64,000 nt of DNA from an uncultured virus (IMG/VR IMGVR_UViG_3300027227_000002) (IMGVR_UViG_3300027227_000002); one strand, 5' to 3'; shown: positions 3,676-19,628, counted from the stretch's first letter. A program made the numbers and translations. Notes: generated from the sequence alone by a model not told the origin.

Positions 3676-3680
3676 CTAAA

Positions 3681-6113: not shown

Positions 6114-6145
6114 ACTATTTCTATTCAGGTAAGCCTACTTTTATG

Positions 6146-6153
6146 CAAATATA
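6146..6153 (-). promoter_or_regulatory. Bacteroidota -7 promoter box TATATTTG
   Basis: TAnnTTTG in the terminase-portal gap, with the same TTTAGTATATTTGCA context as 3668-3675. Confidence 0.6.
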
Positions 6154-6176
6154 CTAAATACCTGTGTGCCAAATAT

Positions 6177-8303
6177 TTACCACCCTGTGTGCTTATACCT
6201 GCGGAAGAAGACCTTATTAGACAAATCTTGCTTTTTAACTTCCTTCGTTATTTTTTGTGCCGCCAGAAGCGCAAGACCAGAAGAGATGGTCATATCGAAC
6301 TTTGTTCGATCGTCGATATTATACCCAATCCAGTCTTCTAGCGTTCTGTTAAAATACATCCGACCGAAATTTCCAGTCTTTATATTCATCCCCACGTGCT
6401 CGTGAACATATGCCTCAATTGCCTGAGCGTGAGACTGGATGACATCTTTACTGTTCGATGGAATACCCTTTGTCTTTACGTTTGTAGAAGATCCCGGGGG
6501 CGTGAGGTGTTCGGGTCTATCCATGACATACCCATCGTATCCTCTTGACTCAAAGTATCTTACGATTCCGTATTTGTTGTTTTCTATTAGCAACGGATAC
6601 CCATAGAATACTGCTGCCATAAGAATGTCCTCATAGAATATACGCGCCAGTGGGGGACGCTCGGCGTACTCCGCTACAAACATATTCGACGGGAAGTTCA
6701 TGTTGAATTTATTAAAAAAATGACAAGCCCCTTTTGATCCAGAACCAGTTGTTGTTTTGTCGATATCGTAGCTATCCACGCCGCCTACGCCGTACATTTC
6801 GTTGCCCGGATGAACCTTTCCATAGCGTGTTTCCCGCTTGTTTCTAAACTCTTCCGGTGGCATCCATGACACGCGCCACTTCCCATTGGGATCTGGAGAC
6901 CAGATCACTCTAGAGTCCGCCAATCCACCCTCCCAAACGAAGTTGCCACGAACCACTGGGCTGGGGTATATCTCGTCATTGTGCTGGATTTGCTCATATA
7001 TCTTGGCGATATTGAAATGAGATGCCTTGGTAGAGTCCCGAAAAGCCTCATCTTCGGAGAACGGGAACTGTCGAATAACTTCATTGAGCTCATAGGGGTC
7101 GGCTAGCAGTGCTTTTCTCTCATTTTGGAGGTATGTTTTTGCTCCATAGTGAATTAGCTCTCCCTCGAGACCGTCTACGGCAAACTCGGGGTCTTCAATT
7201 ACTGGAAGTCCGTGTTTATCGAAAAACCCCTCCAAAGCTTCGTATGCTGGGATGAATATCTTGTATAAACCGCTTTTTGTACGCCCGTTATTGTTCCTTT
7301 CTTGTGGATCTGATGAGTAATATAGCTTTTTAAACTCTGCGCCACCCCGGTCTAGGGGGTTGACAGTTGATCCGACTAGGGCTTTTCCGATAACTTTCCG
7401 ACCAACGATCAAACAAGTGCGGTGAATACGCCAAACGTCCTGAATATCCAGTGGTCTTTCCCATTTTCCAGCCTCGTCAAGGTACAGCATGTGGAGTTTT
7501 TCCCCGTCATAGGCGTTGGTAGTGGTGTTTTTCCAGTTAATTAGAGTGTCTAGCGCCTCTCCCTTGTTGGAGGTTTTGTTTTTTTTGGTGATTCGCTTGG
7601 ATGGCTCTCTAAAAGCGAGCTCCATACGCGGATTTGTCGTACCGTCTTGGATGGGTTTAAAGAAAAACGGGTAAGATTTAAATACCGGGACGACTTTTTT
7701 CATGAAGATGTTCTCCTGAGCGTCTTTACCCGTCTTTGACATGATACCCAGAAGCTTGTCTTTCACCTGTGTGCCCTCATCTACCTCAATACAGGCGCTC
7801 ATGTTGGTATATCCCGAGCGTCTACACTTGGTGTAGATCTGCCCGAGGCATCGGGGATCGGCTTCGCAGGCAGCGAAGTGAATGAAAAGCTTCCTCTGGA
7901 AGTCAAGAAATGACGGATATCCAATATCTATCTTGCTCCACTGGAGCATCATATAATGTCGTCCGGTAATATACGTAGGAACACCTTTATTGAAAAACCA
8001 AACCCCTTCACGCCGACGTTTAAACTCTTTCTCGATATATGAAACATATTTTTGACGGAATTCTCTAGGGCTTTCTGCCCACTCATCCATTGAGCGAATA
8101 GAATCAAGTTCTTTCGGCATAGGTGTTCTTTGCCAGTGTTGATCAGATTCTTCTTTCCCGTTAAATAGTATCTCAGAATCTTCGGGTAATTCGGGTAATT
8201 GAATAAATACGCCGGAGATTTCGATGCTCTCACCTTGAGTACCATTGGGGCAAATGTTGACCACTTCCTCTTCATAGTCCTTATGTTTTATAAGTCCTGC
8301 CAT
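6177..8303 (-). CDS. terL: Terminase large subunit (segment A)
   Basis: 708 aa. Walker A-like KCRRSGYT, Walker B LYLDEAGKW, coupling motif GST, nuclease motifs GGVDSYD, IENN and FDMTISSGLA. Confidence 0.9.
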   Translation of the reverse strand: MAGLIKHKDYEEEVVNICPNGTQGESIEISGVFIQLPELPEDSEILFNGKEESDQHWQRTPMPKELDSIRSMDEWAESPREFRQKYVSYIEKEFKRRREGVWFFNKGVPTYITGRHYMMLQWSKIDIGYPSFLDFQRKLFIHFAACEADPRCLGQIYTKCRRSGYTNMSACIEVDEGTQVKDKLLGIMSKTGKDAQENIFMKKVVPVFKSYPFFFKPIQDGTTNPRMELAFREPSKRITKKNKTSNKGEALDTLINWKNTTTNAYDGEKLHMLYLDEAGKWERPLDIQDVWRIHRTCLIVGRKVIGKALVGSTVNPLDRGGAEFKKLYYSSDPQERNNNGRTKSGLYKIFIPAYEALEGFFDKHGLPVIEDPEFAVDGLEGELIHYGAKTYLQNERKALLADPYELNEVIRQFPFSEDEAFRDSTKASHFNIAKIYEQIQHNDEIYPSPVVRGNFVWEGGLADSRVIWSPDPNGKWRVSWMPPEEFRNKRETRYGKVHPGNEMYGVGGVDSYDIDKTTTGSGSKGACHFFNKFNMNFPSNMFVAEYAERPPLARIFYEDILMAAVFYGYPLLIENNKYGIVRYFESRGYDGYVMDRPEHLTPPGSSTNVKTKGIPSNSKDVIQSHAQAIEAYVHEHVGMNIKTGNFGRMYFNRTLEDWIGYNIDDRTKFDMTISSGLALLAAQKITKEVKKQDLSNKVFFRRYKHTGW

Positions 8304-8596
8304 TATTTGCTATATTTCTCAGCAAACCCCCCAGAGTAATCGGACTGCTCGCTGATTCCGCCACTATCTTTGAGAGATCTAATCATCTCTTCAAGCCTCT
8401 GTCTTTCCTGCAACAGCTCTCTAGCGTCGGTAGCAGTCTGTTTTATGGACTGTAGTTCTGCCTTGCGTTGCGAGCCGTTCAGGTCAGCGTCTACAGGCTT
8501 CTTGATCTCCTCGATCATGTTGTTGATGGCTATTTCCATAGCCCCCATCAGCCTCATCGCTGCGTCTAATGATGTAAAGTTATTATTTTTTGCCAT
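8303..8596 (-). CDS. Putative terminase small subunit
   Basis: 97-aa helical protein coupled to terL. It ends GGFAEK, like the GGFAER of 59161-59433. The function is inferred from position only. Confidence 0.5.
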   Translation of the reverse strand: MAKNNNFTSLDAAMRLMGAMEIAINNMIEEIKKPVDADLNGSQRKAELQSIKQTATDARELLQERQRLEEMIRSLKDSGGISEQSDYSGGFAEKYSK

Positions 8597-9164
8597 GATC
8601 TACGTATAACAGGTCATCAATACGCATTCTCCACACTTTCTTTCCGTCTACCTCCATTGTGTAGTCTGAGCTTTTGGAGAAGTAGACCACGTCCCCGGCA
8701 TATGCCCCCGCTTCGTTGATGGGCTTGCTATCGTATATAATCTCTCCGTGGTCTTCTACCTTTTCTTTCTCCAGAAGTATTATTCCTGACGCGGTTTTTT
8801 TCTCGTCATCTTCTTCAGGAGGTTTAACGAATACCCAATCAGATAGCATAGCCACCCCGCCAGAAGGAGATTGAAAAGCGTATGCGTGAGATCCATATCC
8901 TCCATCAGGGTCGTATTGTACCATGTAGAGGTCGTCTTGGAAGTGGAACTTAGACTCAACGCAAACGTGATGGTGGAAATACAGGATATCACCAACACTT
9001 GCGCCAGTGTCGTACTTAGCCGGGACTGAAACGATTTCGCCATAATTGTATCTGTTTTCAAATTCATTGAACTTAGAAGCCAGATACAGCTCCGTGCCGT
9101 TTACTTCTACAGTGTCTTTGAATTTCTTAGGTAGGCGAACAATAAAGAATTGGAGTGCTCTCAT
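8583..9164 (-). CDS. GroES-like co-chaperonin with two tandem domains
   Basis: LSDWVFVKP...KKTASGIIL...GDVVYFSKSSDYTMEVDGKK...DDLL is GroES-like. The N-terminal half has a second VGD.LYF unit. Confidence 0.75.
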   Translation of the reverse strand: MRALQFFIVRLPKKFKDTVEVNGTELYLASKFNEFENRYNYGEIVSVPAKYDTGASVGDILYFHHHVCVESKFHFQDDLYMVQYDPDGGYGSHAYAFQSPSGGVAMLSDWVFVKPPEEDDEKKTASGIILLEKEKVEDHGEIIYDSKPINEAGAYAGDVVYFSKSSDYTMEVDGKKVWRMRIDDLLYVDHGKK

Positions 9165-9165
9165 A

Positions 9166-9402
9166 TTAAAAGTTGAGATCGTACTCCACGATAACGGGCA
9201 TCCCCTGTATTTCCTTCCACATCATCGTTCCCTCGTTAGGCTGCTCGATGTAGATACAGTATGATATAATTCCGTTCTTGTGGTACGCTCTCTCATTAAA
9301 TTCAATTACCACTACTTTACCTTCGCCAACGCGCATACCAGTGTAGTATGCCATAGCGTCCTTCGGGTTTTGCCCGATGATGATTTTTCTAATTAGATTC
9401 AT
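9166..9402 (-). CDS. Conserved phage hypothetical protein
   Basis: 78 aa, homolog of 60097-60321 (IRK..G....AM.Y...WKE...MP...EY..NF). Confidence 0.75.
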   Translation of the reverse strand: MNLIRKIIIGQNPKDAMAYYTGMRVGEGKVVVIEFNERAYHKNGIISYCIYIEQPNEGTMMWKEIQGMPVIVEYDLNF

Positions 9403-9403
9403 T

Positions 9404-9709
9404 TTAGTTTATTGATCCGTTGCCGAATTTCTTCTCCCACCATTCAATTGTCCCCTCGGGCGGTTCTCTATGCTCTTCCTCCATCTCCGCAGCGTCAAGC
9501 AGAAAGGTAACCAACTGCTCTACATCTTCGTAGCATGGTGAACTCATAGCAAAGGCGATGTCGTATCTATCGTCTTCGTCCTCGGTAAGGTGAGATACAC
9601 CGGCAACCATAGCAACCTCGTCCTCGAGCTCGTAGTGATCTATAAGCTTCTTCATTTCTGAAGCCAGCTCAACAAATTCACGCATGAACATTTCGAGTCT
9701 TGATGCCAT
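9404..9709 (-). CDS. Acidic hypothetical protein
   Basis: ORF track gives 9404-9745. Start moved to MASRLE at 9709 because a TAAATTTG box lies at 9733-9740. Confidence 0.6.
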   Translation of the reverse strand: MASRLEMFMREFVELASEMKKLIDHYELEDEVAMVAGVSHLTEDEDDRYDIAFAMSSPCYEDVEQLVTFLLDAAEMEEEHREPPEGTIEWWEKKFGNGSIN

Positions 9710-9748
9710 ATTTATTAGTATTTTAGTTTCTTCAAATTTAATCATTTA

Positions 9749-10189
9749 ATGAAGTCGAAAAAAACGACTACCCGCAAGATGCGGGAATTTAATAAACTGC
9801 GTAAATACGAGTATAGCACTGACCGTAACTACCTGAAGCAGTTAGACTTAGCCATCAAGAAGATGAATGAGGATCATGGTATTCCACAATCGTGGTTGGT
9901 TATCATGCTGTACGTATACGACCTAGAATTCTGGACGGCGGCACATGTCGCAAAAGAGATGCACCGCAGTGAACGAGTCCTAAAGGTCAAGTTCATCTAC
10001 CCATGCATGAAGGAAGATCTGGTCTATAAGCACTTCGACAAGCTCAGTCCCGGAAATATGACCATAGAGCAACAACTGTTCTATGATGAGAACAAGTACA
10101 ACTACCGAATCCGGTATGCCCTGACGCAACGCGCCCGGCTTTTAGTGCAGCGCTTCTACAGATTAGTAGAGGGCAAGGAGTTTACTTAG
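9749..10189 (+). CDS. Hypothetical protein, possible winged-helix fold
   Basis: 146-aa ORF divergent from the packaging operon. The YALTQRARLLVQRFY C-terminus resembles MarR-type wings. Confidence 0.6.
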   Translation: MKSKKTTTRKMREFNKLRKYEYSTDRNYLKQLDLAIKKMNEDHGIPQSWLVIMLYVYDLEFWTAAHVAKEMHRSERVLKVKFIYPCMKEDLVYKHFDKLSPGNMTIEQQLFYDENKYNYRIRYALTQRARLLVQRFYRLVEGKEFT

Positions 10190-10301
10190 TGTGGGAGTAC
10201 CCCTGCTTCTTGAGCTTCATGTGATCCTCCACGGTTTTAGCCATTACTGACTTACCACCCTTATGCATCATATGCGGTTTGAATTTCTTATTGATCTTCA
10301 T
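10182..10301 (-). CDS. Small basic hypothetical protein (39 aa)
   Basis: Manual translation MKINKKFKPHMMHKGGKSVMAKTVEDHMKLKKQGYSHTK, with an ATGA overlap with the upstream gene. Confidence 0.55.
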   Translation of the reverse strand: MKINKKFKPHMMHKGGKSVMAKTVEDHMKLKKQGYSHTK

Positions 10302-10405
10302 TTCAACTGCTTTAATACGTTAAGGTTATTCTGGGACATCTGCGCCCACTTCTTCCCATTGGAGAAGTTCGGCTTCTTGTTGCCCGCCTTGTGACTCTGT
10401 GCCAT
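10298..10405 (-). CDS. Small basic hypothetical protein (35 aa)
   Basis: Manual translation MAQSHKAGNKKPNFSNGKKWAQMSQNNLNVLKQLK, translationally coupled on both sides. Confidence 0.5.
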   Translation of the reverse strand: MAQSHKAGNKKPNFSNGKKWAQMSQNNLNVLKQLK

Positions 10406-10632
10406 TACTTCTTGCTTCTGTTCTTCTTAGCAGTAATAAACTTCCTTTCAGCGTGATCGTAGTCCATACCATCACCATTGCCATACGTCCCCGCATCGCG
10501 GTTCTTCTTATTCAAGAATGCACGATACTTCTTGCGCTCCTCGCTCTTGTTGTACTTGCGCTGGTACTTGCGCCGCTTTTCTGCCGCCTCGGGGTTCTCA
10601 GCGTAGTATTTGGATGTCTTCCCTACTTTCAT
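10405..10632 (-). CDS. Small basic protein, HNH-like remnant
   Basis: 75 aa, K/R-rich, GDGMDYDH...NR motif. A TATCTTTG box at 10638-10645 lies 5 nt upstream. Confidence 0.6.
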   Translation of the reverse strand: MKVGKTSKYYAENPEAAEKRRKYQRKYNKSEERKKYRAFLNKKNRDAGTYGNGDGMDYDHAERKFITAKKNRSKK

Positions 10633-10695
10633 AAATACAAAGATAATACACTATACAACAGGGTTTTACAGCTTTGCTTAAACCAACACTTTAAC

Positions 10696-10728
10696 ACTTG
10701 ACTTTCTCATTTTTTTGTTGTAACTTTG
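10696..10728 (+). promoter_or_regulatory. Bacteroidota promoter (CTTG-N20-TAACTTTG)
   Basis: Canonical spacing, 28 of 31 nt identical to 17200-17230. Confidence 0.65.
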
Positions 10729-11029
10729 CTATAGAAAGGTCGCAACAGACTAGAGCAACCTTATCCCAAAACGAAGCGGGGAGGGGTAACCCAAAACCCC
10801 CTCCCCCCAACTTCACACAAAGACCTTGAATTAGCCCTAACTGTATTCAATCCCGAACGGGATTTTATATACTGCTATTATATCTGCTACAGGGATCTAC
10901 AAGACTTAAAGCTTTACTTTAACTATTTGAGTTTATGTTTTTAGTTTTGAGTTATATAGGTTTGGGGGATTATAGTATAATAACCACGCCCGCTCGCGCG
11001 ACCCGAACCGAATCTCCAAACCCAACCCC

Positions 11030-11448
11030 CTGACAATCAGCACTTTAGGTTCAAACATTTTACCTTTTTGTTTAACGCATTCCTGCTATCTTACTGATAC
11101 ACAGCGACTTATCGTGGTTGCGTTCAAGTATACCTCTAACTTACGAGCCGTAACTAACTGAAACACAATGACTTCGATCAAGTTAGTTAAACCTTTAGTT
11201 GAGGTGGTATCAAACGACACAATCTGAAGCGATGTCGGAGTCCCTGACGGAACGAAATCAATCCCCCCTCCAGCCCTCCCTACCTCCCACAATCCACCAC
11301 AACTCACCACTAGACTCACGCACTAGTTGTTTTACTGGAGAGCGCTATTTTCCTTCTTGCTTTAAATGTACCCGCGCGTAAGGGAATGTGTCATATGATA
11401 CTATGCAAACTTTTTTTGAAATTTTTCTCGTTGATTATCAATGAGTTA
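11030..11448 (+). repeat. Four copies of an 18-bp motif YTGA-N4-CA-N5-TT
   Basis: CTGACAATCAGCACTTTA (11030), CTGATACACAGCGACTTA (11094), CTGAAACACAATGACTTC (11158), TTGATTATCAATGAGTTA (11431). Confidence 0.5.
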
Positions 11449-11490
11449 GGAAATAAATGCACTTTTTTCTTGCAAATATGTCAACCATAG

Positions 11491-11522
11491 TTTGCTCATG
11501 TGAGAAATGCTTTGTAGTATTG
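11491..11522 (+). promoter_or_regulatory. Putative early-operon promoter (TTTG-N20-TAGTATTG)
   Basis: -33 TTTG plus a -7 box with one mismatch to TAnnTTTG, at correct spacing. Predicted transcription start near 11527. Confidence 0.6.
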
Positions 11523-11529
11523 CAGTGTC

Positions 11530-11563
11530 GTTCGGCTGTTGTTCCGAACACGTTCTTTGAAAT
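11530..11563 (+). promoter_or_regulatory. Hairpin plus boxA-like antitermination element
   Basis: GTTCGG/CCGAAC hairpin followed by GTTCTTTGAAAT (11552-11563), resembling the rrn boxA consensus. Confidence 0.5.
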
Positions 11564-11739
11564 GTTGGTCAGCCCCCCCGCGAAACCCCGCTCCCTTGTG
11601 CGGTCGGTGAAAGCCCGAGTACCGAGATGAAGTGAGTCATTCTAGCAAGTAGGATGCCGCCCCCGAAGTTGACCAACCCGTGAAATTCTGCCCTCGCCAC
11701 GAGTTGGTGAGACCATTCAAGGAATGATGAAAGGCAGAG
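11564..11739 (+). ncRNA. Structured leader RNA of unknown class with two multi-stem domains
   Basis: GTTGGTCAGC/GTTGACCAAC encloses three hairpins. TTCTGCC/GGCAGAG encloses CTCGCCA/TGGTGAG and CATTC/GAATG. No credible ORF. Confidence 0.55.
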
Positions 11740-11750
11740 CCACCCCGCAA

Positions 11751-11882
11751 GGTTAACTGACGATGGATTGAAGCGGAACAAGGTGGTCGTTAAGGGGTAA
11801 GTATGAGGACTCCCTACATTAACATATAATCCGAAACCAAAAACCAATCTGCCCCTCTTCGGAGGGGCGGGTGGTCTTAACC
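11751..11882 (+). ncRNA. Type I hammerhead ribozyme HH1 with enlarged stem II
   Basis: GGTTAA-CTGACGA-(T)-GGATT..58 nt..AATCC-GAAA-CCA..hairpin..TGG-TC-TTAACC. Predicted cut after C11876. One extra U follows A9. Confidence 0.75.
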
Positions 11883-11900
11883 ACAAAAACCTCCTTGAAC

Positions 11901-12206
11901 ATGGAATACTTGATTGACCCCTCTACCTTGAAGTTCATTGCTGAAACCATCAACGGCTACAGCGAAATGGTAGCATCCAAAGAAATAGACTCAAATGAGT
12001 TGACTGAACTCGCCACTGAAATTGCTGAAGAGTGGACTCTAGATTGGGATGAGAACCAAGGCTTTGGTTCATCCGATAGCACCTACATGGTGAAAGAGTT
12101 TGTTGATTCAGTAATCAACATCCACTTCTACAAGCAGTACGAAACGACCTTCGCTCCCGTGATAACCACAACGAAGCACCATCGACTACGAGTTGTAAAG
12201 TGCTAA
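11901..12206 (+). CDS. Acidic early hypothetical protein
   Basis: Start moved to ATG 11901 (MEYLIDP) because the upstream GTG lies inside the ribozyme. Confidence 0.7.
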   Translation: MEYLIDPSTLKFIAETINGYSEMVASKEIDSNELTELATEIAEEWTLDWDENQGFGSSDSTYMVKEFVDSVINIHFYKQYETTFAPVITTTKHHRLRVVKC

Positions 12207-12240
12207 CCAACGACCCCCGAAAGGGGGTTTGGTCTTAACC
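12206..12240 (+). other. Core-less hammerhead substrate-like element O1
   Basis: ACCCCC-GAAA-GGGGGT hairpin then TTGGTCTTAACC, with no CTGAnGA core immediately upstream. Confidence 0.6.
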
Positions 12241-12255
12241 AAAAACTATAGAGAT

Positions 12256-13164
12256 ATGAAAGCAGATGTTGCGCAGAAAGTCAAGATGACTTTGTTGGAA
12301 GGGTTAAAGAAAGATGGTTTGAACTGGTTCAAGCCATGGAAGGGTGGTCTAGCCAACAACCCAATCAACAACTCCAATGGTCGTGCCTACCGAGGCATGA
12401 ATATTTTCATCCTCAACGCCGAGATGCGTTTCAAGGGATACACCTCAAATGAGTGGCTAACCTTCAAGCAGTGCGCCGAGAAGAAAGGCTCGGTCAAGAA
12501 GGGTGAGAAGGCTACTGATGTGTTCTTTTGGAACATCGGATTTATAGCAAACGGAAAGTTCTACAAGAGTGAGCAAGATGCCCTCAACGCTGGACACGAT
12601 AAGAAGGATATCACCAAGACCTTCTCGCTCCGTTTTTACAAGGTGTTCAACATTGATCAATGTGAGAATATCAGCCCTCGCCGAGTGGCGGAGGAGATTG
12701 CAGATGTTGACCCGATTGAATCTGCCGAGGCTATCGTGAAGGGCTACAAGACCGCCCCCAAGATTACCAACTCTACCGAGGACTCTGCATACTATGCTCC
12801 GATGAAAGACCTCGTCCACATGCCCTTGATTGGGATGTTCAAGTCGGCAGACGACTACTACAAGACCTTGTTCCACGAGTTGGTTCATAGCACGGGTCAC
12901 GAGAGCCGTTTGAGCCGCAAGGGGGTAATGAACACCAACCTATTCAGCAAGACCAAAGGTGACTATGCCTTTGAAGAGTTGATTGCCGAAAGCGGTGCGA
13001 TGATGTTGTCGGGGATTGCAAACCTCAATCCATGTGATAGCGACACCAATAGCCAAGCCTACATCAACGGGTGGGTTAAAGCCGTAGAAGACGCAAAAGA
13101 GAGCGCGGTGGTTAGCGCTCTAGTTCAGTCCACTAAAGCCGTGGATTACATCTTGGGAGAATAA
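12256..13164 (+). CDS. ardC: ArdC-like anti-restriction and ssDNA-binding protein with zincin metallopeptidase domain
   Basis: WFKPW, GRAYRGMN, WLTFKQ, VKKGEK, VFNIDQ, FHELVHSTGH..RL.R and YAFEELIAE. Start at ATG 12256. Confidence 0.9.
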   Translation: MKADVAQKVKMTLLEGLKKDGLNWFKPWKGGLANNPINNSNGRAYRGMNIFILNAEMRFKGYTSNEWLTFKQCAEKKGSVKKGEKATDVFFWNIGFIANGKFYKSEQDALNAGHDKKDITKTFSLRFYKVFNIDQCENISPRRVAEEIADVDPIESAEAIVKGYKTAPKITNSTEDSAYYAPMKDLVHMPLIGMFKSADDYYKTLFHELVHSTGHESRLSRKGVMNTNLFSKTKGDYAFEELIAESGAMMLSGIANLNPCDSDTNSQAYINGWVKAVEDAKESAVVSALVQSTKAVDYILGE

Positions 13165-13172
13165 GCCCGAGA

Positions 13173-13202
13173 GCCACCCCCCACGGGGGGTAGGTCTTAA
13201 CC
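13173..13202 (+). other. Core-less hammerhead substrate-like element O2
   Basis: ACCCCC-CACG-GGGGGT hairpin then AGGTCTTAACC. Confidence 0.6.
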
Positions 13203-13217
13203 AATAAACTGAAAAAG

Positions 13218-13496
13218 ATGAACAACTACAAAGAACTGACCGACCTACTGGAAGAAAAAGGAATGTGGAACTATGGTTGGGCAAAGCCCGGTCAAATCTT
13301 CATCAACCAAGGTCGCCGCTTGGCGGCTATTGTGTGCGATGATTCGACTGGCTACAACGTAGCCTACAAGATGCCTAACGGACGCATATACGCAAAGAAT
13401 GTTAATGCTCAAAAGGCGATTGAAATCCTACACATCGCAATGTCCTTAAAGTTGGACGGCGATACAGGTGAAGTTGAAGGTGGCTTCGGCTTCTAA
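13218..13496 (+). CDS. Early hypothetical protein
   Basis: 92-aa ORF with an A-rich leader. Confidence 0.7.
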   Translation: MNNYKELTDLLEEKGMWNYGWAKPGQIFINQGRRLAAIVCDDSTGYNVAYKMPNGRIYAKNVNAQKAIEILHIAMSLKLDGDTGEVEGGFGF

Positions 13497-13540
13497 TTAC
13501 AACCCCTAAAGAATTATTTGTTGAATAAAAAAAAATTGAC

Positions 13541-14095
13541 ATGGCTATTATCGCAACCGGAAACGAATACAAACTTCAGTTAGGTACAATTCAAGAACTC
13601 GATGCCGTCATTAAGATGGTCATCAAAGGAATTCCTGACGGATTCTTTGACTTCCAATCGAAAGGAAATCAATTCGCCACACTTGACCTGAGAGCCGACC
13701 TATCATGTGACGACCAACCTCCAGTGTTCTTGGATATGTTCTACAACGGGCTAATCACGAACTACTTCCGAAACTACGACATAGAGTTGGTCACGATGCA
13801 GTCGGATTACGAGAAGGCAAGTAAGAAGTTGAATGCGGTCAACCCACATGCCTGTTGGGAGGATGTCTTGCTACAGGTATTATCTGACGGAAATCTCGTC
13901 TTCGAAGACCACTACCAAGGGATGACGATTGAACTCGACTTAAGTAAGGTGGGAAGCAACTTCCTGAATGCCTTCAACGATGCACCTGATTACTTTATGG
14001 AACTTGTACTACTTCACGCCAACGGAGGGTCGGACGGAATCACCTACGACTCTTGGCTTCAAATGGGGACATACGGAGAAGTAATCTACGGATAG
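13541..14095 (+). CDS. Early hypothetical protein
   Basis: 184 aa, ending D..LQ.G.YGEVIYG, a motif typical of phage early proteins. Confidence 0.75.
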   Translation: MAIIATGNEYKLQLGTIQELDAVIKMVIKGIPDGFFDFQSKGNQFATLDLRADLSCDDQPPVFLDMFYNGLITNYFRNYDIELVTMQSDYEKASKKLNAVNPHACWEDVLLQVLSDGNLVFEDHYQGMTIELDLSKVGSNFLNAFNDAPDYFMELVLLHANGGSDGITYDSWLQMGTYGEVIYG

Positions 14096-14146
14096 GTTAA
14101 CTGACGAGTCCTAAATGGACGAAACCTGCTTCGGCAGGTCTTAACC
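14095..14146 (+). ncRNA. Type I hammerhead ribozyme HH2
   Basis: GGTTAA-CTGACGA-GTCC-TAAAT-GGAC-GAAA-CCTGC-TTCG-GCAGG-TC-TTAACC. Perfect core and three perfect stems. GUC cut after C14140. Confidence 0.95.
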
Positions 14147-14161
14147 AACAAAATAATCACG

Positions 14162-14461
14162 ATGAAAAACATCACAAACGAATCCGTTCAAGCGTTTATG
14201 AATGCTGTTCCCTTCAAGAAATCCAATATGCGGGTTGAAGTTTTAGAGAACGTCACGATTCTGCGTCTACACGGAAATGTTATTGCGTACCGCTACAATG
14301 ACCCTGAACGTACTTTGTCCATCACGAACTGCGGATGGTTCAGCAAAACGACAAAGGAGCGTCTGAATGGAATCCCGAGCGTATCAATCAAGCAGAAAAA
14401 CTTCAATTGGTACTTGAATGGTACTGAATGGAATGGTGATTTAATTGACATTAAAGGTTAA
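14162..14461 (+). CDS. Early hypothetical protein flanked by hammerheads
   Basis: 99 aa with LHGN.IA...GW.S.TTKERLN motif. Its stop codon forms part of HH3 stem I. Confidence 0.8.
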   Translation: MKNITNESVQAFMNAVPFKKSNMRVEVLENVTILRLHGNVIAYRYNDPERTLSITNCGWFSKTTKERLNGIPSVSIKQKNFNWYLNGTEWNGDLIDIKG

Positions 14462-14512
14462 CTGACGAGGATTCAATATCCGAAATGCCGACTACACATC
14501 GGCATCTTAACC
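14456..14512 (+). ncRNA. Type I hammerhead ribozyme HH3
   Basis: GGTTAA-CTGACGA-GGAT-TCAAT-ATCC-GAAA-TGCCGA-CTACACA-TCGGCA-TC-TTAACC. AUC cut after C14506. Confidence 0.95.
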
Positions 14513-14530
14513 AACTAAATCAACAATACT

Positions 14531-14761
14531 ATGAAAACAATTGATGACTACAAAAAGATGCCGAAAAGCGCACTTGCGGAGAAATGGTTTTGGCTACATA
14601 ACATTCCGACCACATTCCTTGGAGAGGTTGTTTGGTTAGATTTTGGGAATTTTGAAATCGAAGTAGCGGAATCGGATGTTGAGTATAGAGCGAATGAATT
14701 CCTTCGCCTATTAGAAAATGACTTGATAAAACAGCCATTCAAGGGAATTTTATTGGATTAA
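14531..14761 (+). CDS. Early hypothetical protein flanked by hammerheads
   Basis: 76-aa ORF between HH3 and HH4. Confidence 0.7.
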   Translation: MKTIDDYKKMPKSALAEKWFWLHNIPTTFLGEVVWLDFGNFEIEVAESDVEYRANEFLRLLENDLIKQPFKGILLD

Positions 14762-14766
14762 ATTTA

Positions 14767-14823
14767 GGCATACTGATGAGGGCTGAATGCCCGAAACACG
14801 GACTACACATCCGTGTCTATGTC
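14767..14823 (+). ncRNA. Type I hammerhead ribozyme HH4
   Basis: GGCATA-CTGATGA-GGGC-TGAAT-GCCC-GAAA-CACGGA-CTACACA-TCCGTG-TC-TATGTC. GUC cut after C14817. All stems covary relative to HH2 and HH3. Confidence 0.95.
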
Positions 14824-14850
14824 AAATTTTAACCAACGCAAACAATTACA

Positions 14851-15249
14851 ATGAAAACCACGACTGAAGTTGAATGCATGAATGATTGGTGCGACTTTAC
14901 CCACGAGAAGGGGTACTGCACTTGTGATAATGAATCTTTAAATGAGAAGACGATGAAGAAATCAAATGAATTTGTGGCTACTTGCCCCGCACTTGTTTGG
15001 TCAGCAGAAGATGTTGACCTCAACATTGACCGACTCTATGAGTCAGAGGTTATTGACCATGTGAGTGCAAACAAACTAAAGGAGATATCTAATGAAGACA
15101 AACTTCTTTGGTTAGAGCAGATACTTGAGGATTGTCACGATGAGTTTTGTCAGATTATCAATGAGCGAATCGGAGATGCTATCTACGACTACTATCGCAG
15201 TACGCCTATGGGTAAGGAAGAAGTTGGTTACATTAAATACAATAAGTAA
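14851..15249 (+). CDS. Acidic early hypothetical protein
   Basis: 132-aa ORF. The start could be a downstream ATG. Confidence 0.65.
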   Translation: MKTTTEVECMNDWCDFTHEKGYCTCDNESLNEKTMKKSNEFVATCPALVWSAEDVDLNIDRLYESEVIDHVSANKLKEISNEDKLLWLEQILEDCHDEFCQIINERIGDAIYDYYRSTPMGKEEVGYIKYNK

Positions 15250-15534
15250 ATGGAAGCGTATCTTAAATTCTTGAACGACCCCAACCCGCCAACACATTTG
15301 GCGGAGGATGAGTTGTGGGAGTACTATGGTGGAGATTGCTATGGCGACATCTCTTACTATGCCTTCTTACTATGTAGGTTTGGCGAAGCATCTAATTGGA
15401 CTACGGCTATGATTATGGCTGACAAGTGGTCGGATTGGGATAGGCAAAACAAAACCCTTACTGAAGGAATGAGTGGTTACGACTCGTTACTGCATTGGTT
15501 GAATGTTGAATATGTTGGACTTTATTATAAGTAA
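15250..15534 (+). CDS. Hypothetical protein, duplicate copy 1
   Basis: 94 aa, nearly identical to 15780-16070. Confidence 0.75.
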   Translation: MEAYLKFLNDPNPPTHLAEDELWEYYGGDCYGDISYYAFLLCRFGEASNWTTAMIMADKWSDWDRQNKTLTEGMSGYDSLLHWLNVEYVGLYYK

Positions 15535-15580
15535 GATGACGACCTTATTTAAAAACGAGGAGTAAAACAAAAACTACAAT

Positions 15581-15778
15581 ATGATACTCTTTGAATATCA
15601 CGAATCAGACGATGACGATGCATCTATCTACGGCTTGACCTTCGAGGAGGTCAACGATTGGATACAAGACCACAACGAGTACTACGAAACCAACTACCAA
15701 ACTATTCAGGAGTTTAATGATGGTGAGGCGTACCGGGAGTTTATTGTAAGTGAAATGGAAAACGCAAATCTAAATTAA
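15581..15778 (+). CDS. Very acidic small hypothetical protein
   Basis: 65 aa, D/E-rich, A-rich leader. Confidence 0.7.
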   Translation: MILFEYHESDDDDASIYGLTFEEVNDWIQDHNEYYETNYQTIQEFNDGEAYREFIVSEMENANLN

Positions 15779-15779
15779 A

Positions 15780-16070
15780 ATGGAAATGGAAACATATCTT
15801 AAATTCTTGAATGACCCCAACCCTCCAACGCATTTGGCGGAGGATGAGTTGTGGGAGCACTATGGTGGAGATTGCTATGGCGATATCTCTTACTATGCCT
15901 TCTTACTATGTAGGTTCGGCGAAGCATCCAATTGGACTACGGCTATGATTATGGCTGACAAGTGGTCGGATTGGGATAGGCAAAACAAAATCCTTACTGA
16001 AGGAATGAGTGGTTACGACTCGTTACTGCATTGGTTGAATGTTGAATATGTTGGACTTTATTATAAGTAA
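15780..16070 (+). CDS. Hypothetical protein, duplicate copy 2
   Basis: 96 aa, 10 substitutions versus copy 1 over 285 nt (manual count). Confidence 0.75.
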   Translation: MEMETYLKFLNDPNPPTHLAEDELWEHYGGDCYGDISYYAFLLCRFGEASNWTTAMIMADKWSDWDRQNKILTEGMSGYDSLLHWLNVEYVGLYYK

Positions 16071-16071
16071 G

Positions 16072-16335
16072 ATGAAAGAGCTAGATAGAGCAATAGAAGA
16101 TTTAGGTGGTGAAATTTTCATCATGTATTCAGGCGAAAGAGACCCTGAAAAGTACATCAATGAGTGGGGCTATGCCGGGATGGAAACCCCTCACCAATCT
16201 TATAGTAGTGGATTCCAATGCAAAGGAGTTCAGTTGCGAATTGACCTAGGCGGTAAGAGTCACATGATTGAACTACCGCCCCAACTAGAGAGAGACCTCA
16301 TGGATGCCGTGGAGTCCATTCTAGATGAAGAATAA
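16072..16335 (+). CDS. Hypothetical protein
   Basis: Start moved to MKELDRA, directly after the upstream stop. Confidence 0.65.
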   Translation: MKELDRAIEDLGGEIFIMYSGERDPEKYINEWGYAGMETPHQSYSSGFQCKGVQLRIDLGGKSHMIELPPQLERDLMDAVESILDEE

Positions 16336-16336
16336 A

Positions 16337-16366
16337 GAAAGGGGGCAACCCCTTTCGGTCTTAACC
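16337..16366 (+). other. Core-less hammerhead substrate-like element O3
   Basis: GAAAGGGG-GCAA-CCCCTTTC hairpin then GGTCTTAACC. Confidence 0.6.
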
Positions 16367-16383
16367 ATAATTTCACAATCATC

Positions 16384-16548
16384 ATGACGAAATCCAATAA
16401 GTCAGTAGAGACTATAACCTACAGCATGTTCATCCTCCGCTCTTATGCGGAAACGACCTACAACTCCTTCGTTTTATATCACCTAAAAAAGATGGAGAGT
16501 GCAATGGCTAAACTAGAAGTTGAACTCAACACCGAGAGCCATGAGTAA
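16384..16548 (+). CDS. Small hypothetical protein (54 aa)
   Basis: Manual translation MTKSNKSVETITYSMFILRS...TESHE, following O3. Confidence 0.55.
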   Translation: MTKSNKSVETITYSMFILRSYAETTYNSFVLYHLKKMESAMAKLEVELNTESHE

Positions 16549-16696
16549 GTACATAACCTTCAATGCCGACACGCTGATGTGGGAGGTTAGAGAAGATAAC
16601 CAGACAATTGCTTCCTCTGGAGACAAGCGAAGCGTAGAACTTTACTTTCAATATTTACAAGAGAGAGATGGAAAAAGCAGTATTGACATACCTTAA
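16541..16696 (+). CDS. Small hypothetical protein (51 aa)
   Basis: Manual translation MSKYITFNADTLMWEVRED..., filling the gap in the operon. Confidence 0.45.
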   Translation: MSKYITFNADTLMWEVREDNQTIASSGDKRSVELYFQYLQERDGKSSIDIP

Positions 16697-16988
16697 TGCA
16701 CGGGTAGAAGCCCTCCAAAACCAATTGGAACTTCAAAAGCAAATCAACGCGGTGCGGTCTAAAATACCCATTGACCCCAAAAGAGCCCTGTGGATCGTGA
16801 GACACCTAAACTCGGAGTACAACATTCCAATGAACCACATTGCTGAACGGCTAGGGGTTACTAGAGAATGGTTGCGACTCAACTTAAAAGAAGAAGCCCT
16901 CAATGAATCCATGCAACAGCGCATCCGGGACATGGTTGAGGACATGATATCTGACCTTCAGATGATTCTAGTAGAAGAGTTAAAGTAA
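16668..16988 (+). CDS. HTH DNA-binding protein
   Basis: IPMNHIAERLGVTREWL helix-turn-helix. Confidence 0.7.
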   Translation: MEKAVLTYLNARVEALQNQLELQKQINAVRSKIPIDPKRALWIVRHLNSEYNIPMNHIAERLGVTREWLRLNLKEEALNESMQQRIRDMVEDMISDLQMILVEELK

Positions 16989-17000
16989 TACTTTAAGTAT

Positions 17001-17192
17001 ATGCGTAGATATTCAGCAAAATCGCACCTCCGAGGGAGTTTGGAAGGTGTTTCTATGATGTGGATATTCCTAGCGGTGATGAAGTATGCGCTGCAAGATT
17101 ATCACGACATGACCATCCTTTTTATGCTTTTTGTCATTTTCTTTGCCCTCTCTAGGATGGTTAAAGTAGACAAAGTATTCAAGGACAAGTAG
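17001..17192 (+). CDS. Small membrane protein
   Basis: 63 aa with two hydrophobic segments. Confidence 0.55.
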   Translation: MRRYSAKSHLRGSLEGVSMMWIFLAVMKYALQDYHDMTILFMLFVIFFALSRMVKVDKVFKDK

Positions 17193-17199
17193 TTAGCAA

Positions 17200-17293
17200 A
17201 CTTGACTTTTTCAGTTTTTTGTTCTAACTTCACAGACACACAAACGTGTCACTACTGAAAGGCGGGGGCATCCAAAGCCCCCCGACCTTCAGT
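17200..17293 (+). promoter_or_regulatory. Promoter and hairpin leader of the recombination operon
   Basis: CTTG-N20-TAACTTCA, a near copy of 10696. Followed by GACAC/GTGTC and ACTGAA..CGGGGGC/GCCCCCG..TTCAGT hairpins. Confidence 0.55.
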
Positions 17294-17336
17294 TCTAATT
17301 AAGGGATAAGTATATTCAATTAAATCTAGTTTTATT

Positions 17337-17885
17337 ATGGCGAACTATCAGTTCAGAACCACCAACATCAAAGGAAAAGAGTATGTTGAGGTTCACGAGA
17401 GAATCAAGTTCTTTCGTTTAGATGAGCAGTACAAAGGATACTGCTTGGAATCGCAAATCATATCCATCACTGATGATGTAGTATGTATTCAAGCGATCAT
17501 CCGCAATGCAGAAGACCGAGTGGTCGCAACGGGCATTGCCTACGAGGAGAAAGCCTCCTCTAGAATCAACGCTACATCTTATGTAGAAAACTGCGAGACC
17601 TCCGCATGGGGTAGAGCATTAGCAAACCTAGGCATCGGCATTGAGACATCCATTGCGTCAAGCAACGAGGTCATCAACGCTATAGCCAATCAGAACCAAG
17701 CGGTAAAGAGTACCGCTACCGCAACGCCCGAGAGCAATGTGTTTCAACAAGCAGTTGAGTACATCAAAAGCGCACAGGGTTCAGCAAAGGAGACAGCTTA
17801 TAAGCAGGTAATCTCTAAATATGGTGGGGAATTTTCAGAGAAGCAAAAAGATGCCTTGCTGAAGTTCGTACCTAAAGCGAAGTAA
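17337..17885 (+). CDS. Putative single-strand annealing protein (Rad52/Sak-like)
   Basis: KGKEYVEV.ER...ENCETSAWGRAL..LGIG motif. First gene of an SSAP-exonuclease-SSB trio. Confidence 0.6.
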   Translation: MANYQFRTTNIKGKEYVEVHERIKFFRLDEQYKGYCLESQIISITDDVVCIQAIIRNAEDRVVATGIAYEEKASSRINATSYVENCETSAWGRALANLGIGIETSIASSNEVINAIANQNQAVKSTATATPESNVFQQAVEYIKSAQGSAKETAYKQVISKYGGEFSEKQKDALLKFVPKAK

Positions 17886-17886
17886 T

Positions 17887-18702
17887 ATGGACTTCGCTAG
17901 TAAACTAATGGAACGGACAGGGAAGGGATACCTTTCCTACTCCGCCATCAAGTACGCTGCTGATGGAGCAGACGAACAAGACATGAAGCTCTTTGAGCTG
18001 TACATGAAAGGACTCTTGAAGAAGGAGAGTGATGCGATGACTTTTGGTAGTCTCTATGACACCTTACTGCTAGAGCCTCACACCCTTGATGACAAGTTCT
18101 ATGTAATCTATGATGAGGAGAAGGTTCAGGAGTTGCAATCTAACTACAAGACCCCGCGCTCAAGCAAAGAGTACAAGGATTGGTTAGCAGAAGAGACCAA
18201 GAATGCCGGCTCAAAGCGAATCGTAAACAGCGATTTAGTCAGTAAGGCGGAAGAGATGATCTTGCGACTTGATGAGTCAAATGTAGCGATCCCCGAAACC
18301 GGGGAGATTGTTCCCGTTCGCTACTTCATCACGGGTGAAGTTCAAAAAGAGATCTTGAGTTGGATTGGAGACATTCCTGTTCGCGGATTTCTAGATGTCA
18401 GAGGAGATGGATTCATTACCGACAGCAAGACCACTCGGTCTATCTCGGGATTCCGCTACGATGTATTCAAGAGATGCTACGACATTCAAGCTTTTATCTA
18501 TACTCAAACGGAAGGGGTGAGTGAGTTCTATTGGGCGGCTCAAACCACAAACAAACCATATACTGTTGCAGTATACAAGGCTACACCTCAAACGCTAGCG
18601 CGTGGAGAGGAGAAGTTTTGGTCAGCAGTAAACAACATTGCAAGGTGGCTAGATGATCCTAGCGTTGATTCAGCTAGCTTTGCAATATATTCAGAAATCT
18701 AA
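17887..18702 (+). CDS. PD-(D/E)XK exonuclease (RecE/DUF3799-like)
   Basis: LSYSAIK, FGSLYD..LLEP, RGFLD...D.KTT and YDIQA.IY. Confidence 0.8.
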   Translation: MDFASKLMERTGKGYLSYSAIKYAADGADEQDMKLFELYMKGLLKKESDAMTFGSLYDTLLLEPHTLDDKFYVIYDEEKVQELQSNYKTPRSSKEYKDWLAEETKNAGSKRIVNSDLVSKAEEMILRLDESNVAIPETGEIVPVRYFITGEVQKEILSWIGDIPVRGFLDVRGDGFITDSKTTRSISGFRYDVFKRCYDIQAFIYTQTEGVSEFYWAAQTTNKPYTVAVYKATPQTLARGEEKFWSAVNNIARWLDDPSVDSASFAIYSEI

Positions 18703-18727
18703 ATGTTTAATTAAATCCTGAAGCCTT

Positions 18728-19039
18728 ATGTCACAAGACAAAGTATTCATGGGGTATTTCGAGCCCCTAAAGAAGTGGAACGACTCCACTAAAAAGTATG
18801 AGGACATCGACCTCAACAACATCAGCCTTTCGGGGCGCTTTAACTTCACCCTCGCAGAACTAGAGGACATGAAGAAATACGCAACCAACCCAAAGGATGC
18901 CGACAAGCAACCTCGAGTTTACTTCGAGTTGAAGACATCCAAGAAGGGTACGCTGTACGCTGAAGTCAATGACCCATCCACATGGGAAAAGAAAGCTCCA
19001 GCAGCAGTAGCTGCGTCTAGCGATGACTTACCATTCTAA
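18728..19039 (+). CDS. Putative ssDNA-binding protein
   Basis: 103 aa with acidic DDLPF tail, following the SSAP and exonuclease. Confidence 0.6.
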   Translation: MSQDKVFMGYFEPLKKWNDSTKKYEDIDLNNISLSGRFNFTLAELEDMKKYATNPKDADKQPRVYFELKTSKKGTLYAEVNDPSTWEKKAPAAVAASSDDLPF

Positions 19040-19364
19040 ATGGTCTAACGCACTAGCGCTTTACGCAGAATTCAATTGGGGGGTTCGGGTTGAAAAACTC
19101 AGCCCCCCTTTTTTTCTTGCGTACAAGAACGACAAGAAGATCGTCTTTCAGGCTCACATAGTCAGCACATACCTTGACAAAATCAAGTTAGATGTCAGGC
19201 TAAAGGCTGACTTTCTTGTATTGGTATTCGCAGATAAGCCGGGAGATAATTTAATACTGCTAGCAGTTCCCGATGTTGCACCTATAGTATCAAGACCATT
19301 CGATATCCGAGAGATTGTACCGCACATTAAAGCAAAAGATAAATTAGAGTTTAGTCATGGGTAG
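19023..19364 (+). CDS. Hypothetical protein
   Basis: 113-aa ORF overlapping both neighbours. It contains a terminator-like hairpin. Confidence 0.55.
   Translation: MTYHSKWSNALALYAEFNWGVRVEKLSPPFFLAYKNDKKIVFQAHIVSTYLDKIKLDVRLKADFLVLVFADKPGDNLILLAVPDVAPIVSRPFDIREIVPHIKAKDKLEFSHG
19078..19115 (+). terminator. Intrinsic terminator after the SSB-like gene
   Basis: GGGGGGTT..GGGTT-GAAA-AACTC-AGCCCCCC followed by T7. Confidence 0.6.
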
Positions 19365-19602
19365 AGCTATCTATTTTTGCGATGTTGTTATTAGTTATTA
19401 CAAGGGGAAATCCAAGAAGCCTGTGCGTATGAGAAGCTGGGTAATTGGAGGTGGCGATACGCCCGGAAAGATCAACACCGACCAACACATGATGGGTCAA
19501 ATTATGTCAAGGGTATACGACGATAAGTACAAGGGGGTGAGAAAATGTATGGTTGTTGAAGTTGTTAGTGTAAAATTTCTTGGTAATTCGTTTTACTATT
19601 AG
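19357..19602 (+). CDS. Hypothetical protein
   Basis: 81-aa ORF in the operon. Confidence 0.6.
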   Translation: MGRAIYFCDVVISYYKGKSKKPVRMRSWVIGGGDTPGKINTDQHMMGQIMSRVYDDKYKGVRKCMVVEVVSVKFLGNSFYY

Positions 19603-19628
19603 TAAATTCACAATCAAATGTTAACAAC

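Follow-up and report, generated by a model that had tools for sequence, protein, structure and literature searches.

Our analysis identifies three canonical type I hammerhead ribozyme motifs (HH2, HH3 and HH4) and one enlarged relative (HH1) on the + strand of a 64,000-nt stretch of DNA from an uncultured virus (IMGVR_UViG_3300027227_000002), hereafter called the window. Judged by their sequences, HH2, HH3 and HH4 are genuine type I hammerhead motifs. They lie between small genes, and we consider it probable that an early or host-takeover operon would be cut co-transcriptionally by HH2, HH3 and HH4 into single-gene mRNAs, HH1 being a derived copy of the same element. What we observe directly is the motifs themselves, with their statistics, where they lie and the family to which they belong. 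An earlier reading of the same DNA (the original prediction) had proposed four hammerheads punctuating a phage early operon; the coordinates and sequences it gave for all elements proved correct.

14095-14146, + strand: HH2, canonical type I hammerhead; cut predicted after C14140 (14140/14141).
14456-14512, + strand: HH3, canonical type I hammerhead with an AUC triplet; cut predicted after C14506 (14506/14507).
14767-14823, + strand: HH4 core element with its own stem I GGCATA/TATGTC; cut predicted after C14817 (14817/14818).
14753-14836, + strand: HH4 with extension, the flanking outer helix TTGGATTAA / TTAACCAA.
11751-11882, + strand: HH1, enlarged non-canonical type I hammerhead; cut predicted after 11876.

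A strict descriptor, which asks for CUGAnGA, GAAA and U-H, for stems II and III that are closed and have 3 bp or more, and for an open stem I of 4 bp or more, was run on both strands of the 64 kb. It returned exactly three matches, HH2, HH3 and HH4, against a mean of 0.005 matches in 200 dinucleotide-preserving shuffles (a single shuffle contained one match). This bears out the perfect CUGAnGA/GAAA/NUC cores claimed for the three elements, which read CUGACGA/GAAA/GUC in HH2, CUGACGA/GAAA/AUC in HH3 and CUGAUGA/GAAA/GUC in HH4. Stems I, II and III measure 6, 4 and 5 bp in HH2 and 6, 4 and 6 bp in both HH3 and HH4. The proposed stem II and stem III sequences, the U-N-A-A-U loop that all three carry on stem II and the CUACACA loop III common to HH3 and HH4 were also found as described. 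In HH2, HH3 and HH4 the 5´ and 3´ ends lie in stem I and loops close stems II and III, which is the type I topology, and the closing pairs G10.1-C11.1 and A15.1-U16.1 are present in all four elements. As isolated sequences HH2, HH3 and HH4 have the hammerhead fold as their minimum-free-energy structure. HH3 and HH4 retain it when 40-nt flanks are included; with flanks of 40 nt on either side, stem I of HH4 is extended, with internal loops.

A covariance model derived from 56 hammerheads of other phage contigs, none of them from the window, recovered HH2 with 70.5 bits (E 4e-16), HH3 with 62.3 bits (6e-14) and HH4 with 48.9 bits (2e-10), the next match in the window reaching only 11 bits. The family was also searched in a viral-contig collection with a pattern that fixes only CTGAYGAG, CGAAA and TCTTAACC and leaves the spacers free, and it was found at more than 131 viral loci, many contigs carrying two to four copies. 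The stems are unspecified in this pattern; among the 136 unique raw matches listed, stem I forms in 132, stem II in 123, stem III in 129 and all three in 117. In 596 Gb of cellular genomes the same pattern gave 55 matches, which is about the chance level, and five of these form stems, on small contigs of metagenome-assembled genomes. Since stems form in 117 of 136 viral matches listed versus 5 of 55 cellular ones, the hammerhead family is essentially phage-borne. A 4-bp stem II with the 5-nt U-N-A-A-U loop is found in 115 of 133 members among the matches listed. In a 56-sequence family alignment, whose rows were selected for pairing so that its 100 % pairing holds by construction, each position of stems II and III is occupied by three to six types of pair, and the pairs G10.1-C11.1 and A15.1-U16.1 are invariant. 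Across the family, loop II (U-N-A-A-U) is conserved together with stem I (GGUUAA/UUAACC). Among the matches listed, 87 of 139 unique members are followed at 18-24 nt by the ATG of an open reading frame (ORF) of at least 40 aa; for 19 of the 139 no such ORF start occurs within 80 nt.

Two members reside in named phages, Cellulophaga phage phi19:3 (NC_021789.1 21767-21819, minus strand, 51.5 bits) and Flavobacterium phage elemoE_6-9C (NC_055854.1 16304-16361, minus strand, 45 bits). In the latter genome a 35-aa ‘hypothetical protein’, gp65 (NC_055854.1 16289-16396; L264 10290-10397), is annotated over the hammerhead on the strand opposite to all its neighbours, and is probably a spurious ORF. 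A DNA-similarity search of window positions 11000-17000 against the phage collection gave no match, and a 76-nt HH2 query gave one marginal match; the nearest virus record (G001) contained no hammerhead match.

The position of the motifs agrees with a role in transcript processing. Start codons follow HH2, HH3 and HH4 at 21, 24 and 33 nt, respectively, and the upstream stops lie at or inside stem I. The claim that two elements overlap the upstream stop holds for HH2 (the G of TAG, 14095) and HH3 (TAA at 14459-14461, within stem I GGTTAA). Because coding-strand hammerheads sit 21-33 nt before starts and right after stops, cutting of a polycistron is the natural reading. The + strand block from about 10.7 kb would thus be the early or host-takeover operon of a podophage infecting Flavobacteriia-type Bacteroidota, probably transcribed by the host RNA polymerase from a TTG / TAnnTTTG promoter at 10698-10729. 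HH2, HH3 and HH4 would fold in the nascent polycistron and cut themselves after GUC or AUC at the three positions listed above. The upstream message would keep the stable stem III hairpin as its 3´ end, with a 2´,3´-cyclic phosphate, and the downstream message would begin with a 5´-OH on a short, A-rich, unstructured leader (UUAACCAA...) 21-33 nt before its AUG. No Shine-Dalgarno sequence was found in any leader of the + strand block, and an A-rich leader of this kind would suit Shine-Dalgarno-independent initiation in Bacteroidota. The reading is the one already put forward for clustered phage and prophage hammerheads (PMC3088659), and it is also favoured by the ArdC-like anti-restriction gene in the block and by the hammerheads that relatives have immediately before their ArdC homologues (L007, L008 and L014, see below). 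HH1, at the end of a non-coding leader of about 1 kb, would cut this leader off, probably slowly or conditionally, if at all.

Several points weigh against this reading. Transcription of the + strand as one unit, cleavage in vivo and a benefit such as separate stability or translation of each cistron are steps that we infer. With 40-nt flanks, the minimum-free-energy fold of HH2 differs from the hammerhead fold, and the core of HH1 is predicted to be sequestered by a competing helix. A comparison with the Rfam hammerhead models, which the original prediction had put forward as a check, returned no hammerhead in the window at gathering thresholds, only a tRNA at 21414-21486. In E-value mode HH2 alone matched RF00163, end to end, with 30.2 bits versus a cut-off of 34, whereas HH1, HH3 and HH4 gave no RF00163 match at E <= 10; the RAGATH-1 hammerhead (RF03152) matched HH2 and HH4 weakly (20 bits versus 56). 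The low RF00163 scores are likely due to the Rfam model, in which stem III is very short, and scores under the Rfam thresholds mean that standard annotation misses HH2, HH3 and HH4. Contigs from RNA libraries bridge HH2 (13905-14211) and HH4 (14725-15019) unbroken, which may reflect DNA carry-over or uncut RNA. In four metatranscriptome runs, available as contigs, which cannot show RNA ends and so speak neither for nor against cleavage, no ends or joints were seen at the cut sites. Finally, the block is unevenly equipped. Three gaps contain only a half-site (see below), one gap (13497-13540) contains neither hammerhead nor half-site, and four genes at 15250-16335 are without any element. The proposal that the hammerheads occupy consecutive intergenic gaps stands for HH2 to HH4 but fails for the three gaps between HH1 and HH2, which hold no complete hammerhead. 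Cutting into monocistronic units fits in position and strand but was overstated, several gaps having a half-site or nothing.

HH1 differs from the three canonical elements in several respects. Its 5´ part consists of GGTTAA, CTGACGA with an extra T after A9, a stem II GGATT..AATCC closing a 57-nt insert, and GAAA; its 3´ part consists of a stem III with CCA, an 8-nt bulge on the 5´ strand, a 10-bp hairpin and TGG, followed by TC and TTAACC. A 5´ string of 13 nt is identical to HH2 and HH3. The element was recognised neither by Rfam nor by the strict descriptor nor by the independent covariance model (11 bits, mis-aligned), but a relaxed descriptor allowing one extra nucleotide after A9 matches it, with no matches in 100 random windows. 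In the minimum-free-energy fold the core UGACGAU pairs with GUCGUUA of the insert (P ~0.85), the base of stem II has P ~0.1, and the hammerhead fold is reached only under constraint, 5.1 kcal/mol above the minimum. The description of HH1 as an enlarged hammerhead thus holds in that all core elements are present, and is weakened in that only the relaxed descriptor finds them and a competing helix is predicted. The compact hammerhead of locus L101 shares the extra U and stem II of HH1. According to a passage in PMC3705267 (citing De la Pena & Flores 2001), the Chrysanthemum chlorotic mottle viroid (+) hammerhead tolerates an extra residue between A9 and G10.1, and a U there raises the trans-cleavage rate 3-4 fold. 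HH1 and L101 resemble that hammerhead, and the Penelope-like element hammerheads set alongside it (in the part of PMC4209133 concerned), in having one extra nucleotide at this position; HH1 differs from them by its 57-nt stem II insert, bulged stem III and predicted competing helix. From sequence and predicted structure we conclude that HH1 is a genuine derivative of the hammerhead family, whose activity, if any, may be slow or conditional.

Besides the hammerheads, the block contains shorter sites that repeat only their 3´ end. The string GGTCTTAACC occurs exactly at 11873, 12231, 13193, 14137 and 16357, and as CATCTTAACC at 14503. At 12231, 13193 and 16357 it forms part of a half-site made up of a GC-rich hairpin, GGTCTTAACCA and an ATG 21-23 nt on:

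12207-12240, + strand: half-site 1, hairpin CCAA-CG-ACCCCC GAAA GGGGGT-TTGG, then TC TTAACC; ATG 21 nt past the cut-equivalent 12234/12235.
13174-13202, + strand: half-site 2, hairpin CC-ACCCCC CACG GGGGGT-A-GG, then TC TTAACC; ATG 21 nt downstream.
16337-16366, + strand: half-site 3, hairpin GAAAGGGG GCAA CCCCTTTC, then GG TC TTAACC; ATG at 16384, 23 nt downstream.

None of the three contains a CUGAnGA or GAAA core. Their hairpins have no common sequence, yet all pair, and they end just before or in the GG. Taken together, all seven sites (hammerheads and half-sites) stand 21-33 nt ahead of an ATG. Upstream of the half-sites some sequences looked like decayed hammerhead 5´ halves by eye, but these are supported neither by a profile hidden Markov model of the family (nhmmer) nor by the covariance model, which gave no match at the half-sites at E <= 10; such halves are undetectable, since the profile aligns only its last ~15 positions at 12231, 13193 and 16357 (E 0.6-1.3).

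The arrangement recurs elsewhere. L022 has an enlarged complete hammerhead of 103 nt, preceded by at least 400 ORF-free nt and followed by five sites ending ACG-TC-TATTACTAA, each ~15-20 nt before an ATG, and L060, L062, L089 and L107 have one complete hammerhead and then one to three sites ending GGTG-TC-TTAACCA. In the lineages with half-sites the complete element lies most upstream, and in its stem III only the 5´ strand is interrupted (by an 8-nt bulge in HH1, 6 nt in L022 and 3 nt in L060/L062). No description of half-sites after a complete element was found in the open-access literature searched. Two readings fit these data: the half-sites could have arisen by duplication of the 3´ module and leader as a cassette, or they could be substrates of a single distal core.

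Three further candidates for the half-sites were rejected. As intrinsic terminators they lack a T-run after the hairpin on the + strand, and terminator-like sites number 8 versus 6.0 in shuffles. N4-like hairpin promoters were considered for the combination of hairpin and conserved box, and no RNA polymerase was found among 31 ORFs of at least 150 aa searched. One of the proteins tested for this idea is encoded by an ORF of 3119 aa (33457-42816, minus strand); it has an LPD23 (large-polyvalent-protein) domain and a C-terminal part matching a PHROG of unknown function, and is not an RNA polymerase by these searches. A minus-strand antisense small RNA of the FopS/GibS type was suggested by sub-threshold Rfam matches in L022 only (FopS 27.5 bits versus 56; GibS 30 versus 115), with none in the window. 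In reverse complement, the L022 match (389-532, minus strand) corresponds to the hammerhead 3´ module, leader and start codon. GibS and FopS are Bacteroides small RNAs with a seed directed against the translation-initiation region, and the matches probably reflect a generic Bacteroidota translation-initiation region (compare the relevant part of PMC11697453).

The hammerheads probably serve in addition as sites at which related phages cross over to exchange gene cassettes, as a sequence comparison suggests; no other long strings are conserved in this hypervariable region. By blastn, identity between L001 and the window is 99.86 % over 6256-14148 and 100 % over 15566-19970, and in between, window positions 14149-15565 are replaced by an unrelated 609 bp.

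14108-15565, + strand: cassette present in the window and replaced in L001 by another segment of 0.65 kb; four genes, HH3 and HH4; left junction inside HH2.

The differences start within HH2, where L001 has G for A in loop II and CCCCC/GGGGG in place of CCTGC/GCAGG in stem III, the latter a compensatory exchange; the L001 orthologue still scores 67.6 bits in the covariance model. The L001 replacement comprises two genes with a half-site before each and ends at GGTCTTAACCAAT, three bases before identity returns. In an RNA-library variant an HH3-like hammerhead and TTAACCAAAT stand ahead of the 184-aa gene (with loose ends at 13528), and in another, other flanks are joined to the 5´ part of HH2. 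Over the family loci listed, 22 of 111 internal alignment ends have a hammerhead no more than 12 nt away, versus 6.3 expected (maximum 14 in 500 trials), an enrichment measured against uniform placement and not against gene boundaries, where phage mosaic joints tend to fall, which also counts against our interpretation.

These exchanges raise the possibility that the half-sites, and partly the hammerheads too, are portable intergenic cassettes made of a protective hairpin and a standard leader, which have lost the core or never had one and in which cleavage is an optional extra. The shared sequence would then serve as homology for shuffling and as a uniform translation-initiation leader. Such a role is consistent with the L001/window swap, bounded on the left by HH2 and, in L001, on the right by the GGTCTTAACCAAT site, with the variants that place a hammerhead leader before the gene at 13541, with the breakpoint enrichment, with the uniform distance of all seven sites from their ATG, and with the presence of TTAACCAAC downstream of HH4 despite HH4's own stem I. 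The enrichment is modest, however, and is not set against gene boundaries, and the scenario leaves unexplained why the conserved part is exactly the hammerhead 3´ half with a hairpin in the stem III position. Hammerheads near ArdC homologues, which were found without the pattern, also speak against it. GGTTAA/TTAACC is their stem I in only one of the seven listed (an unselected set), and because stem I varies there, the leader sequence is not generally required. Directly upstream of an ArdC homologue we find a type I hammerhead in L008, a type III hammerhead in L007 and L014 and a half-site in the window; the type III element (L007 ~5930-5990, and L014) is arranged as CCTG-TC, a stem I hairpin, CTGATGA, GCC..GGC, GAAA and CAGG. 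All in all we regard portable cassettes without a primary cleavage role as possible but rather unlikely.

The second alternative assigns the half-sites a catalytic context. HH1 would lend its catalytic 5´ half (one strand of stem I, CUGACGA, stem II and GAAA-CC) to several targets in one transcript, namely the 3´ module of HH1 itself and the three half-sites (12231, 13193 and 16357), and cleavage of the half-sites would depend on this distal or trans-acting core. More generally, one enlarged slow hammerhead at the head of an operon (HH1 here, the 103-nt element in L022) would act as the catalytic half for substrate-only modules placed before each gene downstream. The half-sites hold exactly the hammerhead 3´ module, with a hairpin where stem III would be and then GG, UC and UUAACCA (exact in five places), and their hairpins remain paired although they differ wholly in sequence. 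The same layout with other sequences is found in L022 and in L060/L062/L107, the complete element comes first, and the break in the stem III 5´ strand lies where an enzyme and a substrate module would meet. The bases that precede the UC lack a partner in cis in L022, in L062 and at 16357. At 12231 and 13193, by contrast, the GG is paired in cis, HH1 would retain its own stem III after self-cleavage, and binding would amount to a 6-bp stem I plus 2-3 bp only. No free enzyme-only half exists, GGTTAACTGACGA occurring only in HH1, HH2 and HH3, and HH2, HH3 and HH4 are complete in the same operon. About four lineages were examined, several of whose loci are related, and identical sequence matches would be expected if the 3´ module had simply been duplicated. 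We therefore think a distributed hammerhead of this kind improbable, in its general form just as for HH1. If true, it would be a naturally occurring hammerhead with several substrates, working at a distance or in trans, and the phage would time or grade the processing of its operon via a single regulated ribozyme.

A third idea reads hairpin and GGUCUUAACCAA as an RNA signal recognised by a protein, such as a boxB/boxA antitermination site of the nut type or a site for a host RNase. Antitermination signals in rrn leaders consist of a hairpin followed by a U/A-rich box, an order that the half-sites resemble, and about half of 20 Flavobacteriales 16S leaders do contain a GTTC(T/A)TTGAA-type box, in some cases after a hairpin. 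But TCTTAACC is found in none of these 20 leaders (a lone TCTTAAC in G038 lies inside a hairpin stem), seven repeats in 5 kb are unlike nut sites, and in HH1, HH2 and HH3 the sequence is fully accounted for by U16.1, C17 and stem I. The boxA or nut-like version was rejected for want of any match to a host-type rrn-leader boxA among the 20, and a protein-recognised signal as a whole is very unlikely. Least probable of all, and in our view hardly tenable, are inactive relics or chance matches, to which one could ascribe the sub-threshold Rfam scores and the RNA-library contigs that run uncut across HH2 and HH4, against an expectation of 0.005 per window, E-values of 1e-10 to 1e-16 in the independent model, an intact core at every position, the compensatory stem III in L001 and a widespread family whose stems covary.

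Processing of an early polycistron by HH2, HH3 and HH4 remains the reading that we prefer, and the surrounding genes are given here in that light. A block of small + strand genes contains the interval 11751-14823 and begins past a divergent point near 10.65 kb:

10405-10632, - strand: last minus-strand gene before the divergent point, real (phrog_6437).
10698-10729, + strand: candidate host-type (Bacteroidota) promoter at the divergent point, TTGAC box and GTTGTAACTTTGC.
10736-11750, + strand: leader of ~1 kb without a recognisable protein gene, only ORFs of 43-60 aa.
11901-12206, + strand: gene, 101 aa, no family match.
12256-13164, + strand: ArdC-like anti-restriction gene, Pfam ArdcN and zincin MPTase-PolyVal; phrog_7245 anti-restriction protein, E 1e-61.
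13218-13496, + strand: gene, 92 aa, no family match.
13541-14095, + strand: gene, 184 aa, no family match.
14162-14461, + strand: gene, 99 aa, Kyano_Gp96 family (Pfam PF23790, E 1e-13; phrog_554).
14531-14761, + strand: gene, 76 aa, no family match.
14851-15249, + strand: gene, 132 aa, no family match.

Bacteroidota promoters have the form TTG-N17-23-TAnnTTTG, and the candidate at 10698-10729 is the sole + strand match to it in the early block; its TAnnTTTGC box is also found upstream of 16S genes in Flavobacteriales genomes. By this resemblance the + strand early transcript probably starts there. For the leader at 10736-11750, two ORFs searched gave no PHROG match and Rfam gave none either. 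It has GC-rich hairpins, e.g. GGGGAGGGG...CCCCCTCCCC near 10780, parts of it (10977-11296 and 11563-11833) occur in RNA-library contigs, and it may be a hammerhead-terminated non-coding RNA. Within it, 11137-11168 bears a weak likeness to the 5´ half of the hammerhead profile (TAACTTACGAG...GAAAC; E 0.59; the core G replaced) and is possibly a dead hammerhead copy.

Downstream of the 132-aa gene more small ORFs follow. Two paralogous genes, at 15248-15539 and 15784-16075 (94 and 96 aa), are 96.6 % identical in DNA and enclose a 65-aa gene; L001 has a single copy. The end of an ORF at 20950-21423 lies within the tRNA gene at 21414-21486 (73 bits, anticodon loop CUUCUAA). The closest relatives of TerL and portal are found in Flavobacterium and Cellulophaga phages. 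Because the large terminase is nearest to those of Flavobacterium, Cellulophaga and Tenacibaculum phages (40-47 % amino-acid identity), the host is most likely a member of the Flavobacteriia. On the minus strand (1-9745 and 33457-63621) there are two distinct sets of portal, large terminase and GroES-like genes, with amino-acid identities of 33 % (portal), 47 % (TerL) and 23 % (GroES-like) between the sets; given two such distantly related sets, it seems that two different podophage genomes or contigs are joined in the 64-kb window.

Our results highlight an abundant, unannotated and sharply defined subfamily of type I hammerheads in Flavobacteriia-type phages that is invisible to Rfam. As members occur in the culturable phages phi19:3 and elemoE_6-9C, cleavage in vivo and its benefit are directly testable. 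The L001 swap gives tangible evidence of ribozymes as recombination joints, at which gene cassettes are exchanged between near-identical phages, and the half-sites that follow a complete element in at least four lineages could be a record of module spread or a hint of a multi-substrate hammerhead.

Several known systems invite comparison. RNase III cuts T7 early mRNA between cistrons at structured sites and leaves hairpins at the 3´ ends. The processing proposed here would likewise cut an early polycistron between cistrons and leave 3´ hairpins, but it would need no protein, would be predicted to yield 5´-OH and cyclic-phosphate ends, and equips only some of the gaps. In T4-type phages, PeSL cassettes place a promoter and a stem-loop before small early genes of a hypervariable region and mark shuffling junctions. 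The window motif also repeats with a stem-loop before small early genes and marks such junctions; unlike PeSL, which carries a promoter, the repeat is a ribozyme or its 3´ half. The discontinuous hammerheads in the 3´ UTR (untranslated region) of rodent Clec2 genes have enzyme and substrate parts far apart on one transcript. They are a precedent for a distributed core acting on the half-sites, with the difference that Clec2 joins one enzyme to one substrate via a long stem I loop, whereas here one core would serve several substrates and be nicked at stem III.

Among hammerhead families, the window elements share the catalytic core and open-stem-I topology of RF00163 and RF03152 RAGATH-1, while having a stem III far longer than that of the RF00163 consensus. 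The nearest counterparts are the clusters described in the parts of Perreault et al. 2011 (PLoS Comput Biol, PMC3088659) concerned with phages and prophages, in which hammerheads flank single genes or short gene blocks; clustered prophage hammerheads cleave in vitro in ~2-kb transcripts there, one tested triple set flanks the anti-restriction gene ardA, and it was proposed that they cut long phage transcripts into single-gene mRNAs. A passage of a 2019 review (PMC6765202) still calls hammerhead function in bacteria and phages open. The window resembles the clusters in those parts of the 2011 paper by its several coding-strand hammerheads flanking single genes, with HH1 before the first, and by an ArdC-like gene in the block where the tested set has ardA. 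Unlike the clusters described there, its copies are all type I, with a near-invariant stem I GGUUAA/UUAACC, a 4-bp stem II and a UNAAU loop, and they lie 21-33 nt before start codons, in a virulent-looking Flavobacteriia-type podophage, with half-sites alongside. The subfamily may already be among the alignments that accompany that paper; no description of its definition, the half-sites or the cassette joints was found in the open-access text searched. Clustered intergenic phage hammerheads have thus been known since 2011, and it is the definition of the subfamily, the half-sites and the cassette joints that our analysis adds.

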